DNA of 64,000 nucleotides from an uncultured Nitrososphaerales archaeon. GTDB taxonomy: Archaea > Thermoproteota > Nitrososphaeria > Nitrososphaerales > Nitrososphaeraceae. Where the stretch lies: assembly GCA_963713605.1 (NCBI GenBank), contig CAVQMO010000005.1, forward strand, positions 1 through 64,000, written 5' to 3'. Shown here piece after piece: positions 15,001 through 21,000 of the stretch; the first letter of the stretch is position 1, and every line of letters starts with the position of its first letter. Made by a program: the position numbers.

Positions 15001-18000
15001 TATATGGGATACAGAAAATGGCGTAGTATTTGGTGATGAAATCAATCTTGTTTATCCTGGCTTCAACAGTGGATGGAATAAGATTGACGGCATATGGCTA
15101 AGAGGATATGCTATTGAAGATACTGAGACGCGTATAGCTTCAAACCAGACAATAAATAGTTCCCTAGTTGATTTTAATGGAAAAGGCAAATACAGTCCAC
15201 CTGAAATTACTTGGTTTGAAGATGTTGGTCCTACCGCAATCCGATTCCTTAATTCTGACAAGTTAGGTAAGCAATATGAAAATGACATGTTTGTGGGGGA
15301 TATTGTCAACGGCAATATTTATCATTTTGACTTAAATAAAAAGAGAACAGAGTTACTATTATCGCCAAATAGTCCTCTTTCAGATAGGGTTGTCAGTAGT
15401 AACGAAACCACATTTAATGATGAAATGGCATTTGCCAAAGGGTTTGGTGGTATTACAGACATAGAGGTAGGTCCAGATGATGGTTATTTATATATACTTG
15501 CGTTTAATAGTGAAGAAGGGACAATTTATAGAATAGTACCTAGTAATAACTTGATGCAGCAGCAGTGATCTTCAAAATTGCCAAAAAGAGAATTGTGTGT
15601 CTGGTAGATCTGCACTTAAGCCGCCTCGCCCCCTGTCTAACTAACATTTCTTGTTTAATGGCTATCGGATTATCCATGCCTGTGTGCCGAATTGTGCGTT
15701 CATCGATAGGATAAGCGGATATTGTCAATTACCTATCTCATATATAATAGGTTTTCTGTATAATTAGAACATAACTGCTAACAGATCCCTAATATGTTAG
15801 CCCCTTTTTGGCCGGATTGTTCATTTGGCTACCATAGCATCTGATAAGATAGACCTATACCAGCATACCATAGCATCTCGCATCTTGATAAAAAATAAAT
15901 TTATTAGTTACAAGTAAAATATAGATGACAACGGCTGAGAAATGACTTCACTCTTGCCTGTCTCCGTTACAGGATACGACAGTAGGAAATTTCTAGTCAT
16001 CATTTCAATTGTGGCTTCTTTATTAATAATGGATATATCACTTAGCAACATTTCTGATATGATAATCGTATCTTCTAGTTGGGGTTTTGCTGCCTTTATT
16101 GCTATAACAATTGTATATGGAGTAGGACAGTATCTCATTTTAGACTTCGTGAAACAGAAAAGTAAGAGTATAAGATTGAAGTCACGACTTTTCAATAAAC
16201 TATTCACTATAATGACAATAGTACAGTATGTTCTAACAGCCAGTATCGTATTTATTATTCTACAAATATTTCTGAACTCCTATTACTCTACTTCTATGTT
16301 AATTTGGAGTTCGTCAATCAGCTATGCAATGGCCAGTATTGTAATGGTGATACTTGCCCTGGAGTTCTTTTTATGGTACAGATCGAATAGAAATTTTGTA
16401 GTCTTGTTATATGGTGCAGCTTCTATAATTACTAGTTTCAGTATTGCATCATCGTTTGTTTTTTTCACCGTTATACTATTAGGTATGCCTTCTGAGATGG
16501 TGTCGCCCTCAAAACTCACAATGGAACAAGAAGAAGTTGGCCATTCAGAACAAGAAGAAGTTGGCCATTCAGAACAAGAAGAAGTTGGCCATTCAGAACA
16601 AGAAGAAGTTGGCCATTCAGAACAAGAAGAAGTTGGCCATGGACCAGATATCAGAAAATTTGATCAATCTACATTATCGGGTAAAGTCCAGATTGTCTAT
16701 GTTGTATCGCATATTTTGAGCTTTTTGGTATTGTGGGGAGGCTCAGCCATGCTTCTACACTCTTATTCTAAAAAGTTAGGCAAAGTCAAATTCTGGACTA
16801 TCATCATTATTCCTATAGTATCCTTTCTAAGTATTTTTGTTATTGTAACCCCATTAGTGATGAGTGTTTCGCATGGTAGTAATGAAATGGACACGAATTT
16901 CAAAATAATAGTAGATGCTTTAGGCTATACTCTTCCTGCAGCTGTCAGCAGCATCTTATTTGGTCTTCCCTTTTTTATGATAGCAAGGAGCCTTAGTAGT
17001 AGCGTTTTGAAAGATTATATGACTATTGCCGGGTCCGGTTTTGCTCTTTTTGCTTTAGCAACCTCAGGTAGTGTAATGTTAGCCTCTTATCCACCCCTTG
17101 GACTTGCCAGCGTCTCACTGGTAGGATTATCATCCTATCTGATTCTAATTGGCATTTATTATTCAACAATTTCTATGTCTGAAGACGTAAAGTTACGTCA
17201 GTCAATTAGAAAATCTGCCGAAAACGAATCAAAACTTCTGGTTAGCATCGGATCTGCTAACTTGGAGCAGAAAATAGAGGAAAAGGTGATAAGGAAGGCA
17301 AAAGACCGTGCAATTAGTATGACAGAGCAGACTGGAGTCCAACTATCTCTTACAGAATATGACATGAAACATTATCTGTCAACAGTATTAAGAGAAATTA
17401 AAGTATTACAAAACGTTGATGAAATCTTAAGAAAAGGAAAAGAAATTCTGGAGAGCTCTATAGAGTTTTTGGCTTGTTCAAAATTTGATGGAATGCGATT
17501 GGTCTACAACAACTACTTTGATACATATGAAGGAGTAATGCTGAAGTATAGAAATGGACAACACCAAGGCATAAGATGGATTACTTCTATTAAAGACAAA
17601 GATAGTGTAGATCTGGTTAGAATGTTTCTCGATATAGGGGTTCAGATAAGACATGTCAAAAATATGCCGCCAATTGATTTCGCTGTTTCTGATAGAGTTA
17701 TGATGGCTACAATAGAGAAGATGGAAGGCGGCGAGATGGCCCAGAATATGTTGGTTAGTAATGAACCAGCATATATTAATCACTTTGTTTCCATTTTTGA
17801 AGAGTTGTGGAAGAATGGAATTGATGCTTCAGATAGAATAAGAGATATTGAAGAAGGAGTTGACCAAGCTAATATAGAAATTATTTCAAATCCAAAAGAA
17901 GGAATTAAACGTGCTTGGAATATTATAAAATCAGCAAAAATAGAAGTATTGATAATGTTTTCCTCAGCGAATGCTGCACGTCATCAATTAGAAATGGGTG

Positions 18001-21000
18001 GGCTACAATTATTAAAAGAAGTATCAGAGGAGAATCGCGCAAGGATAAGGGTGCTAATTCCTGCAGACGAGGGTAATATTATGTCAACAGCAATGAAGGA
18101 AACAAAATCGACCTATCGGCAGATTGACATTAGAAGGATAGATAGGAATCTAGAGACTAAAATTTCAATAATATTAGTTGACAGAAGGGAATGTGTTATC
18201 GTAGAATTGAAGGACGACGCAGAAGATAATTCCTACAATGCAGCAGGTTTAACTACATATTCTGATAGCAAGTCAATTGTTTCATCATATATTTCTATAT
18301 TTGAAAGTTTTTGGAAACAAACCGAGTTGAATGAACAATTAGAAGAATTAAACAAACGGCTTACAGAAGCTAATGAACAACTAAAAGTTCATAACAAAAT
18401 ACAGAATGATTTCATCAATATAGCAGCTCATGAGCTGACGTACTCCTATACAACCAATACTTGGTTTATCTGAGATACTTCGTTCTAAAATAGTCCCCGA
18501 TGGTAGGAGTGGAGTAGGAGACGAACAAAAGATACTAGATGCCATTATCAGAAATGCAAAGAGATTGCAGCGACTTACAGAAGATATATTAGACGTTACT
18601 CGGATTGAAAGTCATTCATTAAAACTAAAGAAAGAAAGGTTTAACCTGAATGAATTGATATCAAATGCTGTACAGGACTATAGAAATGAAATTGAAAAAA
18701 ATAATAGAGACATTAAATTATTAGAAAGCCCTAGCAATCAGAATATTATTTTAGAAGCTGACAGAAGCAGGATAACTCAAGTCATTTCTAACCTAGTAGG
18801 TAATGCTATCAAATTTACCACAGAAGGAACTATATCTATCAGTACACAAAGGAAAGACAATCAAGTTATTGTTAGTATCAAAGATACCGGGTCAGGCATA
18901 GACCATGAAATACTACCTAGATTGTTTACTAAATTCTCTGCAAAATCATTCGAAGGTACTGGCTTAGGATTATTCATCTCCAAAAATATTGTAGAAGCAC
19001 ATGGCGGTAAGATTTGGGCTGAAAATAATAATGAAACTTACGAAGAAAAGGGAGCCACCTTTTACTTTACGCTGCCACTCATCGACCACTACAACTAAAT
19101 GCAAAATGACTGATCTATAATTTTAACCAAGAACGGACAGGTTGCCATTCATATTGGACATACAAACTGCAGTAGAGGATGAAACAGGATCATTAGACAA
19201 AGAGGCTACTTCTTGGGATGATTGCTTTGTTGCATTTAGGATGTCGCTGACGTTTTGGTATTAGTGGCAAATTGTTTGACCCTTCCTCAGCGATATCCAT
19301 GCCAAGTTGTAATCAGATTTCAATGTCCGTATGAAGGGTGTAAACGATGACGTTGGAAATATGAAATCTAAACTCCATGTAAATGACTAATTTAGATTAC
19401 AAAGAATGGGCCATCGGGACTTGAAGTTGCATTTGCTAACTAAAGCGGGAAAGAAAGATTCAAAGATTAGCGTAATCTTTCTTGATGGTATGTATTGATG
19501 TGAGGCAGTCTTTATTAGAAGGTTAGTACACAAAATGGGATGAAAAGTCCCGATTATAGTCGAAGAAAATATGATCCTGTATGTCACACAATAGCAATCA
19601 TTACGATATTTTCATTTGTTTTGATGTTTTCATTTCTCTATGAATCCATACTGTCTTCCTCAATCTTTCACTCTATTGCGTCTACATTCTTTCCTGATGA
19701 TGCAATTGTTTCTGTTTCTGAAGCATATGCTCAACCTTATGTAGAGACAGTCAAACACAGAGATCTAACTATTGATCTTGGCAATGGATTAAAGACAAAC
19801 GCTCAACTAACTTTTCCTGCTGTTGGTAAGGGTCCATTTCCTGGCGTTGTCCTTTTGGCCGGTGGTGGACCTACTGATATGAATTATTCTTTAGGCTCTA
19901 TTCATGTCGATAATAAGACAGGCTCAAAAATATATCCACCAACCATATTCTTTGAAATCGCTGAATATCTTTCAGAAAGAGGATTTGCGGTACTTCGATA
20001 CGATAAAGAGGGGAGTAGGTACAAATCATACAATTCTGGATAGCAATGTATGGAGAAATATAACAGTAGGTAATTTTGAAAAACGATGCAGAGAAGGCTA
20101 TGAATGTTCTATTGCAACAGCCAGAAGTTAATAAAAGTGCAGGAATAACATTAATCGGACATAGTGAAGGCACCGTATTAGCACCAAGAATTGCAATAAA
20201 TAACCCAGATAAATTCAAAAATATAGTGCTTATGGCAACACCAGCCCTAAATCTGATTAAAGATAATGCTTATCTAAACTATGTATTGATCTACATGATT
20301 CTATAGACTGAAACATTTTTTTATCAGTAAACCAGATATCTCTCATACAGATGATGAACCCCTTTACCTACGGGAATCTAACACTCCTTGGGTGTCGCTC
20401 AGTAGTTCGTTTCTGGAAGTGGTTTCACAGGGTATTTTGATAGTGTGTTTAGATAGCACATCCATACTGACTTTGAATGACTGCCAGTCGCCGTAAATCC
20501 GCACGGATAAGGTCGGCAATGTCTTCCATGTGCTGGATATAGAGGGAGCCATTGTAACTCAACAGCAAGGCCAGGAAATGCTGGACTGGTCGACAAGGAC
20601 GATGGTAGGAAGAAGCATGGGGATTGATGTTGCATGGGGAGAAACATCAAAGTTTGCAATTGTCATTACTCAATATAGAAACAACAAGGTAGAAGTATTC
20701 TATGCAGAAAGCTTTGACAAGCCACAAATGAATCAGATAATAAATCATATATTACAACTGAAACAGAAACATCATATAACAAAGTTGTACGTAGACGGAG
20801 CGAATCCAGAAGTCATAAGAGAACTAAAGTCAAGGATAGGCGAGTACGAAAACTATCCTATTCTGAGGAGCAACTCTGGCTGATGTGTACCGGGAGACAT
20901 GCAGATTATACCTGTCAACTTCCAGGAGAGACATAAACAGATGTTGCAATGGACATATACGTTAATGTCGAAGAGGTTTATCAAGATTCATCCAATGTTG

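Follow-up and report, generated by a model that had tools for sequence, protein, structure and literature searches.

Several described systems come close to the locus studied here. In agr-type peptide quorum sensing, a small precursor gene, a modifying enzyme and a multi-helix sensor kinase module lie in one locus, and in systems that combine a solute-binding protein with a membrane sensor, a secreted protein is encoded beside that sensor. Seven-helix membrane sensors placed N-terminal to HisKA/HATPase_c occur in archaea as HisKA_7TM (PF16927), as described in PMC5847659, and archaeal kinases have been stated, in general terms, to carry GPCR-like 7TM folds (PMC13581589). Most archaeal kinases are cytoplasmic and their inputs unknown, according to PMC5847659 and PMC6944256. 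No description of the membrane family reported below (TM), of its candidate partner family W or of the associated peptide was found in the openly licensed literature searched; new here is the linkage of stand-alone TM genes to W.

The window analysed comprises 64,000 nucleotides from an uncultured Nitrososphaerales archaeon (genome G000; contig coordinates on C5 equal window coordinates). An earlier note had reported an ORF of 843 aa at 15942-18473 that stops within its kinase part, with a C-terminal half 44-52% identical to two other kinases, and all of this was borne out: the identities are 51.6% (C10:505690) and 44.1% (C12:27046), and the stop falls inside the H-box, after which the frame resumes in the HATPase_c ORF (Table 1). 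The early end comes from a single surplus base at 18437, as comparison with the intact orthologue of a related genome (81% identical) shows. This base is probably an assembly error; of 13 other conserved, unrelated genes tested, 4 are likewise broken up in the assembly. The window gene is a complete kinase, with TM module, two PLD-like domains, HisKA and HATPase_c, that one base splits, and the H-box His and HATPase_c stand in one chain both by read-through of the window gene and in intact relatives. A scan with a bacterial promoter model, unsuited to archaea, gave no match. The two PLD/TrmB-like domains between the module and HisKA were absent from the earlier description; they recur in some two dozen kinase genes or gene fragments of the same genome that lack the membrane part. 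Phospholipase D enzymes carry a catalytic HKD motif. In the window kinase the His-x-Lys is replaced, the aligned position in the first domain reading PPID, and the likeness to these enzymes is one of fold only.

Table 1. Features of the window kinase gene, in window coordinates.
Feature	Position	Strand	Basis or remark
TM1-TM3, aa 14-112	15981..16277	+	AF2 helices; conservation and K+R bias; structural matches begin near aa 110
TM4-TM10, aa 117-412	16290..17177	+	seven-helix bundle, N-out/C-in; VIA-align
24-nt repeat, 4.9 perfect copies, encodes EQEEVGHS	16524..16640	+	outer TM5-TM6 loop
Cytoplasmic tail, aa 413-489: TM10 extension and two helices	17178..17408	+	AF2, conservation
Two PLD/TrmB-like domains	17406..18326	+	4ggj match, E 0.0012
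Coiled coil and HisKA	18327..18620	+	HisKA found in intact relatives
Phospho-acceptor His codon	18429-18431	+	within HisKA; frame shifted at 18437, stop at 18473
HATPase_c (PF02518, E 1.2e-30), true C-terminus of the kinase	18565..19098	+	Pfam

The membrane module had been assigned seven to eight helices. We find ten, N-in/C-in, from the AF2 model (pLDDT 90.3, pTM 0.89) and the positive-inside alternation across 142 sequences. The first three, TM1-TM3, are additional to the GPCR-like core and lie outside it at the N-terminus; they have conserved intramembrane residues D31, Q63, Q95 and Q108. The residues W149, Y237, G242, W247 and F298, previously called invariant, are so only in small alignments; their equivalents are 77-95% conserved in the 142 sequences, where P384 is the sole invariant residue. 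The most conserved outer element is a YPPFG-type loop preceding TM10. In the cytoplasmic tail, R419 (97%), Y478 (97%) and E485 (94%) stand out in the same set; this tail is conserved in fused and stand-alone members alike, and every C-terminal fusion begins directly after it.

TM4-10 have the seven helices, N-out/C-in orientation, helix order and packing of the GPCR/rhodopsin fold, with Z of 8-12.4 to many proteins of that fold; these are moderate values from a predicted model and, being below about 13 for helical bundles, may reflect a common arrangement only. The best match in VIA-align is the class D GPCR Ste2 (7ad3_B; Z 12.4, rmsd 4.1, 227 aligned, 8% identity), with KR2 (Z 11.3) and ADGRL3 (Z 11.0) also scoring well, and, with about three exceptions, the 50 best structural matches, which cover aa ~110-426, belong to 7TM receptors, rhodopsins or PAQR-type proteins. 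HisKA_7TM or 7TM ion-channel-like structures were absent from the structural matches listed, which leaves room for them. Foldseek searches of PDB and viral structures with the TM model returned nothing at E<=0.001, which counts against a receptor. We regard the likeness of TM4-10 to the GPCR/rhodopsin arrangement as moderate. That these proteins are retinal-binding rhodopsins or true G-protein-coupled receptors, as the fold alone would allow, is nevertheless extremely improbable. Microbial rhodopsins carry a Schiff-base lysine in the seventh helix and class A GPCRs the motifs DRY and NPxxY; among the 142 sequences none has a Lys in TM10, none has NPxxY and one has a DRY-like motif (motifs that define class A only). 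The family also differs from Ste2 and other GPCRs in lacking sequence likeness to them. GPCRs couple to heterotrimeric G proteins or arrestin; the outputs visible here are kinase, PLD-like or W domains instead.

The claim that the module has no Pfam match was confirmed, as none lies above cut-off; among 105 representatives no Pfam family occurs in more than one at E<=0.01, and NCBIfam and a sequence search of PDB yielded no family. The nearest named Atlas cluster is HisKA_7TM (score 0.81, a lead only). PF16927 has, however, no match in this genome, in the window protein (E<=1) or in the 105 representatives (E<=0.01), and hhalign to HisKA_7TM, with only 18 sequences on that side, gave no significant match (probability 0.87%, E 0.064, hardly better than the controls, reversed at 0.11 and shuffled). 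What the two share is a seven-helix membrane sensor ahead of the kinase, a form that is the minority here; the present family differs in its three extra helices, conserved tail, PLD-like domains (the one HisKA_7TM kinase examined has, by eye, PAS-type linkers), mostly kinase-free members and linkage to W.

The family itself is real, but the 21 loci and 33 gene calls first counted in this genome become 23 loci after merging of 35 ORF segments; of these, 8 are almost complete in one ORF, 8 are broken by frameshifts and 7 are partial. It is present in 107 of 121 genomes of the Nitrososphaeraceae, major soil nitrifiers, and was not found outside this family of archaea in the genomes searched. At 50% identity it forms 2,686 clusters (829 with E<=1e-30), and most matches in relatives are intact frames of ~450 aa. 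The second kinase fusion named in the earlier note, C5:87252-90354, does carry the same module with HisKA and HATPase_c. Such fusions, found intact, make up 15 of 99 loci in ten relatives (~15%); only 3 of the best 150 representatives are kinases of ~1000 aa, and a search for longer homologues found a single kinase among the matches listed, which is weak evidence. The TM modules of the kinase fusions do not form one clade (AU p 2.6e-45) and their PLD-like parts form one subfamily; modules have, therefore, been exchanged. Since stand-alone forms dominate, end uniformly after the conserved tail and have fused counterparts that are not one clade, simple loss of the kinase is unlikely. Of the suggestion that stand-alone members are receptors that lost or never had a kinase, the receptor part is favoured by the fusions, the 7TM core and the linkage to a secreted protein, and the loss is not. 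That they are truncated, decaying kinases, as the 15 split or partial loci among the 23 in this genome might suggest, is largely refuted and very improbable, given the background frameshift load of this assembly, the intact frames and many clusters in relatives, the uniform C-terminus and the tight linkage to W. Stand-alone members are the majority, not decayed kinases.

The statement that no partner is known no longer holds: a candidate partner, W, can now be named, joined in some cassettes by a candidate peptide. W is a second unnamed family, an Ig-like beta-sandwich with a Trp-rich helix, without a Pfam match in 59 members or an NCBIfam family. In ten relatives W lies within 600 bp of 42 of the 84 stand-alone (non-kinase) loci, against 0.5 expected by chance; 31 of 46 such neighbours are divergent, with head-to-head spacings of 37-325 bp, and 80 of 106 near-complete W genes are within 6 kb of a TM gene. 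The W profiles were built from genes adjoining TM genes; when loci were chosen by W alone, 7 of 11 loci of ammonia-oxidising archaea had a TM neighbour. In the window genome W occurs within 5 kb at 5 of 23 loci (random mean 0.7). By a hydrophobicity proxy, 22 of 24 divergent W proteins have a signal-peptide-like start and 43 of 50 non-adjacent ones do not; the typical adjacent W is the secreted, head-to-head copy, and signal-less copies occur near TM/W loci. Across 26 divergently oriented pairs, the sequence divergence of TM is correlated with that of W (rho 0.43, 0 of 2000 permutations). In a TM-W fusion found on two contigs (P0239/P0296), W sits where the kinase otherwise is, and is closest to a signal-less W in the cassette of its sister TM gene. 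Complex prediction for a TM/W pair of the window genome scored 0.49 against 0.00 for the best control (at least 81% of contacts agreeing between runs, partner pLDDT at least 82), in a range (<=0.60) that held 18 of 157 solved complexes and both of the 2 in 215 mismatches that passed, and so lends the pairing weak support.

Several observations count against a receptor that works with W: none of the 15 kinase fusions has W within 600 bp, half of the stand-alone genes lack a W neighbour, and bacteria and Methanosarcina have W with no TM gene beside it (0 of 13 loci), where bacterial neighbourhoods gave no functional hint. Frame artefacts aside, no family recurs in more than three loci beside W-less stand-alone genes. 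In an IQ-TREE subset a W-less clade (28 of 47 rows, SH-aLRT 98) holds 12 of 13 kinase rows; the window gene, beside which no W was found when the loci of this genome were checked, belongs to the clade without W neighbours. A two-group split in FastTree was not retained, its root being weakly supported in that subset. A membrane protein in which W is joined to dCache_1 offers a parallel, as does the position of W beside a membrane sensor, to solute-binding protein systems, from which W differs in having no periplasmic-binding-protein fold and in having cytoplasmic paralogues.

Some cassettes contain, beside an accessory YcaO, a conserved gene for a peptide of 39-40 aa (20 strong copies, spread over 15 of the 121 genomes and mostly in TM/W cassettes), tail-to-tail with YcaO in 18 of 18 loci read, i.e., the conserved short precursor gene beside a YcaO enzyme by which RiPP loci are recognised. 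Codon variability is highest at the third position (0.24/0.19/0.48, 16 copies). Loci chosen by YcaO or peptide alone contain TM in 6 and W in 8 of 12; L216 has the accessory YcaO and W with no detected peptide, and L217 has the peptide with neither TM nor W in 8.4 kb. Eight loci with large cassettes sit at the same chromosomal position, next to rpl40e, and related loci are not independent, which weakens the case for the receptor reading. In NCBIfam the cassette YcaO matches TIGR03266 best, below the cut-off; among the near-universal YcaO copies its closest counterparts are 53-57% identical to it, and TfuA follows them in 3 of 3 cases tested. The cassettes thereby resemble YcaO-TfuA thioamide synthases and thioamitide RiPPs, but no TfuA was noticed in the cassettes read, and the tail-to-tail precursor has no Pfam match. 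With agr they share a precursor, a modifying enzyme and a multi-helix sensor kinase module in one locus; here, however, the enzyme is YcaO, the receptor core is GPCR-like and usually kinase-free, and W has no agr counterpart. The peptide gene, in 15 genomes against 107 with receptors, was not found in the window genome, which counts against the receptor reading outlined below.

In RiPP systems the enzyme modifies the peptide, and the product is cleaved and exported; the loci read show neither a conserved exporter nor a conserved dedicated leader protease next to the peptide gene. The ten-helix protein might itself move a peptide or metabolite between secreted and cytoplasmic W, the kinase fusions being secondary transceptors; W-family partners on both membrane sides, buried polar residues in the ten helices and the lack of another conserved exporter beside YcaO and the peptide fit such a transporter, yet the structural matches are 7TM receptors and rhodopsins rather than secondary carriers, and with the repeated kinase fusion and the conserved long tail we consider it unlikely. 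Alternatively, the modified peptide could be an antimicrobial that TM and W neutralise, pairs without YcaO being orphan immunity modules. Orphan pairs outnumber producer cassettes, a protealysin-type M4 protease with emfourin, a papain-family protease and a DyP peroxidase recur in cassettes, and Foldseek ranks first for W a chagasin-like protease inhibitor, a class with an Ig-like fold and three inhibitory loops (E 1.6e-4, TM by query 0.27). That likeness is weak, however (Z 5.1, rmsd 5.8, 103 aligned), the peptide is conserved across seven genera rather than hypervariable, and kinase fusions are unexpected for immunity proteins; we hold this explanation to be rather improbable.

We consider it reasonably probable that the family is a modular receptor specific to Nitrososphaeraceae with a secreted co-receptor and exchangeable outputs, its binding and ligand being putative; topology, fold likeness, fusions and gene linkage are its established part. 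The receptor would consist of a GPCR-fold 7TM core, three accessory helices and a conserved cytoplasmic helical tail serving as output socket. An extracellular cue would be bound by secreted W, which would dock on the outer face, and the change would travel down TM10 into the tail. The tail would then act in cis on whatever is fused to it, be it the PLD-PLD-HisKA-HATPase kinase, one PLD-like domain or W; alternatively, it would reach signal-less W proteins or the numerous soluble PLD-kinases in trans. The window receptor probably senses directly and then phosphorylates a stand-alone response regulator. If these proteins are receptors, the likeliest cue in cassettes with both the accessory YcaO and the peptide gene is, tentatively, the modified peptide.

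The arrangement of TM and W, with or without peptide and YcaO, suggests a system for sensing or for signalling between cells that is so far undescribed. For a large, lineage-wide family of probable receptors, a candidate partner can now be named and a short peptide put forward as candidate ligand, which makes the sensing of the outside by these archaea testable. A kinase-free GPCR-fold family that has multiplied much as receptor repertoires have in eukaryotes, and that would have a co-receptor and interchangeable outputs, is also relevant to how 7TM receptors left the two-component format. A fuller picture, which we offer as speculative, would be modified-peptide signalling in soil ammonia-oxidising archaea: the accessory YcaO would modify, probably thioamidate, the precursor, secreted W would capture the product and present it to the receptor, the tail would signal via cytoplasmic W paralogues or exchangeable kinases, and dozens of orphan receptor-W pairs per lineage would hear other cues or strains. 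The repeat in the outer loop of the window receptor has fewer copies in close relatives (about 2-4) and low pLDDT; that its EQEEVGHS units mimic the VGH-type C-terminus of the peptide, as a tethered ligand or decoy, is a long shot.

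The 843-aa open reading frame (ORF) at 15942-18473 of the window was recovered as the earlier note had claimed, and the TM family to which its membrane module belongs (~440 aa, a candidate receptor) is real, although bigger and more structured than first described. Instead of about 21 loci and 33 gene calls, a profile search of the genome yielded 35 ORF segments (residues 1-490 of the window protein matched 28), which merge into 23 loci, eight nearly whole, eight split by frameshifts and seven partial. Genome growth in Nitrososphaerales is, according to the accessible part of PMC7603488, driven by duplication. 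The named homologues come from Nitrososphaeraceae; the TM family occurs in 23 of 24 genomes of this family and in none of 16 that belong elsewhere in the order, and in 107 of 121 Nitrososphaeraceae genomes representing 17 of 18 genera (E<=1e-20, with scoring limited to 14 candidates in any one genome). In a 121-genome sample of the phylum it was encountered only in the genome under study, bar one 40-residue match containing a stop. Among 1.84 billion representatives, 2,686 matched at E<=0.001 (any taxonomy, weak tail included) and 829 at 1e-30; the best 150 include three ~1000-aa kinases, one protein with a single PLD-like domain and one with a W domain (a second family, see below). Our tallies take in the unpublished genomes G013, G354 and G373, and locus L110 of G013 is one tree row; none carries any claim alone.

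The AlphaFold2 model of the module (142 sequences; pLDDT 90.3, pTM 0.89) has ten membrane helices and three cytoplasmic helical stretches. Mean Lys+Arg per loop alternates from N-terminus to tail (2.6, 0.5, 4.2, 0.2, 2.1, 1.3, 3.7, 0.25, 3.1, 0.04, 4.6), the pattern of ten helices with both termini inside, not of the seven to eight helices ("7TM") proposed earlier. Conservation climbs toward TM9, the YPPFG-type outer loop, TM10 and the tail. Foldseek gave no match at E<=0.001, and an exhaustive structural aligner aligned aa ~110-426 with 7TM proteins (Ste2: Z 12.4, rmsd 4.1, 227 aligned; KR2: Z 11.3; ADGRL3: Z 11.0), where helical Z scores under about 13 may reflect a common helical arrangement; these alignments nevertheless span most of each 7TM target and agree with the topology derived independently. 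DRY and NPxxY are GPCR motifs. A DRY-like motif was found in one of 142 family sequences, NPxxY and the retinal lysine in none, and that the TM protein, for all its likeness to Ste2 and KR2, is a true GPCR or a rhodopsin seems to us extremely unlikely. In Pfam the module was not matched by PF16927, and hhalign with an 18-sequence alignment gave no significant match to it.

As a 7TM sensor kinase, the family is of a general kind already known. The sensors of archaea named in the accessible part of PMC5847659 are MEDS, PocR, HisKA_7TM, HisKA_4TM and Cache, the TM family not being among them, and the cytoplasmic share of kinases is given there as 62%; that of PMC6944256 presents a matching picture. 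GPCR-like 7TM folds are reported for archaeal kinases in general (PMC13581589); "Nitroso" occurs nowhere in its main text, and TM-family members may be among the roughly 955,000 7TM models listed in its supplement. An arrestin-like gene lies on a Nitrosocosmicus island (PMC13245735, part available). In the open-licence literature, the TM family, W and the peptide treated below were found nowhere described.

The earlier note had the gene end inside the kinase part; the ORF does so, but HATPase_c resumes past one extra base (see table), which is not present in the intact orthologue of genome G003 (1,036 aa, 81% identical). Since four of 13 unrelated conserved genes in the assembly are split and the DNA ligase of the window is a further sign of indel errors, the extra base is, judging from sequence, likely an assembly error. 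The outer TM5-TM6 loop contains a 24-nt unit repeated 4.9 times. The nearest receiver domain found within the window lies at 41264-41734 (31 of 42 ORFs >=130 aa and one shorter scanned), whereas at two related kinase loci a receiver is encoded nearby. PLD-like ORF segments number 35 in the genome; almost none of them has membrane helices and many have an H-box, and the soluble PLD-like kinases are possible trans partners.

In a 194-row tree, kinase-fused TM modules occupy at least four to five positions among stand-alone ones; in a 47-row tree, with the fusion group defined after the first tree was known, a single clade was rejected (p 2.6e-45). The PLD-like parts of the fusions form one subfamily (36-row tree), with two soluble kinases of the genome nested in it as sister of the window protein, and the trees conflict at loci L101 and L103. 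By this combination TM and PLD-like/kinase modules have been exchanged, without direction because the trees are unrooted. That the stand-alone members, among which the fusions are scattered, are decayed kinases appears very improbable. A P-II gene (PF00543) lies near ~1,033-aa kinases in four loci.

W, a name coined in the present analysis, denotes proteins of ~200 aa without Pfam match (59 members), whose predicted model (pLDDT 95.7) is an Ig-like sandwich with weak structural matches (Z<=6.2) and a weak chagasin-like one (E 1.6e-4, TM 0.27). It occurs in 20 of 24 family genomes versus 0 of 16 outside; in bacteria and Methanosarcina it is present without a TM gene, and contig C5 has no W gene. 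Pseudoalteromonas, Paraburkholderia, Brevibacillus and Ralstonia have plasmid-borne W homologues (117 records, L131-L134), which are annotated as hypothetical or unannotated, and no common neighbourhood was found among them. Complete match lists were compiled from ten relatives; once split genes had been joined and short fragments left out, their 156 TM rows came to 99 loci, and the 139 rows for W came down to 131. In these lists, W lies within 600 bp of 42 of 84 non-kinase TM loci (expected 0.5) versus 0 of 15 kinase loci, and 31 of 46 W neighbours are divergent to the TM gene. Within loci picked for W or TM, a signal-peptide-like start is present in 22 of 24 divergent W and absent from 43 of 50 non-adjacent ones. 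In P0239/P0296, a W of the signal-less type is fused straight after the TM tail. TM-W pairs co-diverge, which shows joint inheritance and is not evidence of binding. The predicted complex of one pair from the genome (L011) scored 0.49 versus 0.00 for the best control (contact agreement >=81%, partner pLDDT >=82), graded as weak support; 18 of 157 solved complexes scored in that range, as did both passing mismatches among 215. We consider it fairly probable that the TM family is a modular receptor, for which secreted W would act as co-receptor and the tail as an output socket taking a kinase, a PLD-like domain or W; ligand, binding and output are what we infer. With W in secreted and signal-less forms, the TM protein might alternatively be a transporter between two binding proteins, which we regard as unlikely.

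Features of the window, of contigs of the genome under study (C) and of loci read there, in relatives or in bacteria (L)
Feature	Location	Remarks
Two PLD/TrmB-like domains	window gene, directly 3' of tail	catalytic motif absent
Coiled coil and H-box	window gene, downstream of PLD-like domains	
HATPase_c	window 18565-19098	split from H-box by single extra base at 18437
ATP-dependent DNA ligase	window 48132-50276	in two ORFs
Two Band 7/SPFH genes	window 43684-44781, 46284-47393	
CopC-CopD fusion	window 56138-58501	
RTX-repeat protein	window 6773-7594	
Low-complexity secreted and collagen-like ORFs	window 22546-25795	
Short TM-family pieces	C10:74614-74793, C12:336690-336860, C10:897769-897960	cover just the tail or the final helices; likely remnants
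~94-aa secreted-looking protein	L019:4247-4528 and 9 others (10 loci)	divergent, upstream of conserved ~1,033-aa kinase clade
Receptors with one PLD-like domain, no kinase, divergent W	L046:2127-3929, P0166; L136:1911-3818, L143:1912-3720	domain seen in first two, deduced from length in last two
TM protein with different ~200-aa extension	L047:991-2925	
MinD/ParA-type P-loop ATPase	L158:5876, L162:5669, L173:5755	right after W-less stand-alone receptor; isochorismatase gene upstream in two
Receiver, thioredoxin-reductase-like gene, cNMP-binding kinase	L012:6190-9751 (Pfam), L026:4675-6259 (by eye)	downstream of family locus
Other W architectures	L049:3036-4760; L148:3263-5278; L037:4335-5594; L140:5928-6980	W with dCache_1; three tandem W domains (bacterium); longer W-containing proteins
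Large cassette (L155, L013, L156)	C1:894000-907000	M4 protease, 340-aa unknown, papain-family protease, DyP, frameshifted TM gene, three W, rpl40e; also a 127-aa membrane protein found in 7 loci
Unannotated peptide copies	L039:1511-1627, L033:9666-9782, L112:4769-4885, L032:7365-7484 and 16 others	
YcaO of ~830 aa	L223:2735-5227, L224:690-3185	third type, long extension

Larger cassettes also hold several signal-less W, YcaO (six loci), DyP peroxidase (five), papain-family and M4 proteases and emfourin; eight of them adjoin rpl40e and are therefore not independent. The large cassette of the genome itself contains neither YcaO nor the peptide, an ORF of 39-40 aa with the conserved end TPG[DE][VT]T...H[NQ] that was spotted in four loci among 361 small intergenic ORFs. 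Twenty strong copies occur in 15 of 121 genomes and seven genera, none in the genome under study; their variation pattern is coding-like, and in all 18 loci read the peptide stands tail-to-tail with an extra YcaO, so placed that its gene is a candidate archaeal RiPP precursor. YcaO as such is present in 120 of 121 genomes, with TfuA following it in three of three tested, and cassette YcaO are 53-57% identical to their best matches among these near-universal copies. Around further YcaO matches, 11 of 20 regions contained the peptide; the other nine held other YcaO types, contig-end cuts or, in L216, W without peptide. Of 12 peptide loci not initially picked by TM or W, six have a TM gene and eight a W gene; three have neither, two of which spanned only about 3 kb. 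Immunity to an antimicrobial made by YcaO would be another role for the TM protein in such cassettes, and an improbable one in our estimate; that receptor, W and peptide together form a new kind of system is possible, though less likely than not. Several peptides end in a VGH-type motif, found also in the TM5-TM6 loop of two of 142 TM-family members; EEVGH occurs five times in the open frames of the genome (753,676 aa), each time within the window repeat, a resemblance noticed post hoc that may be chance.
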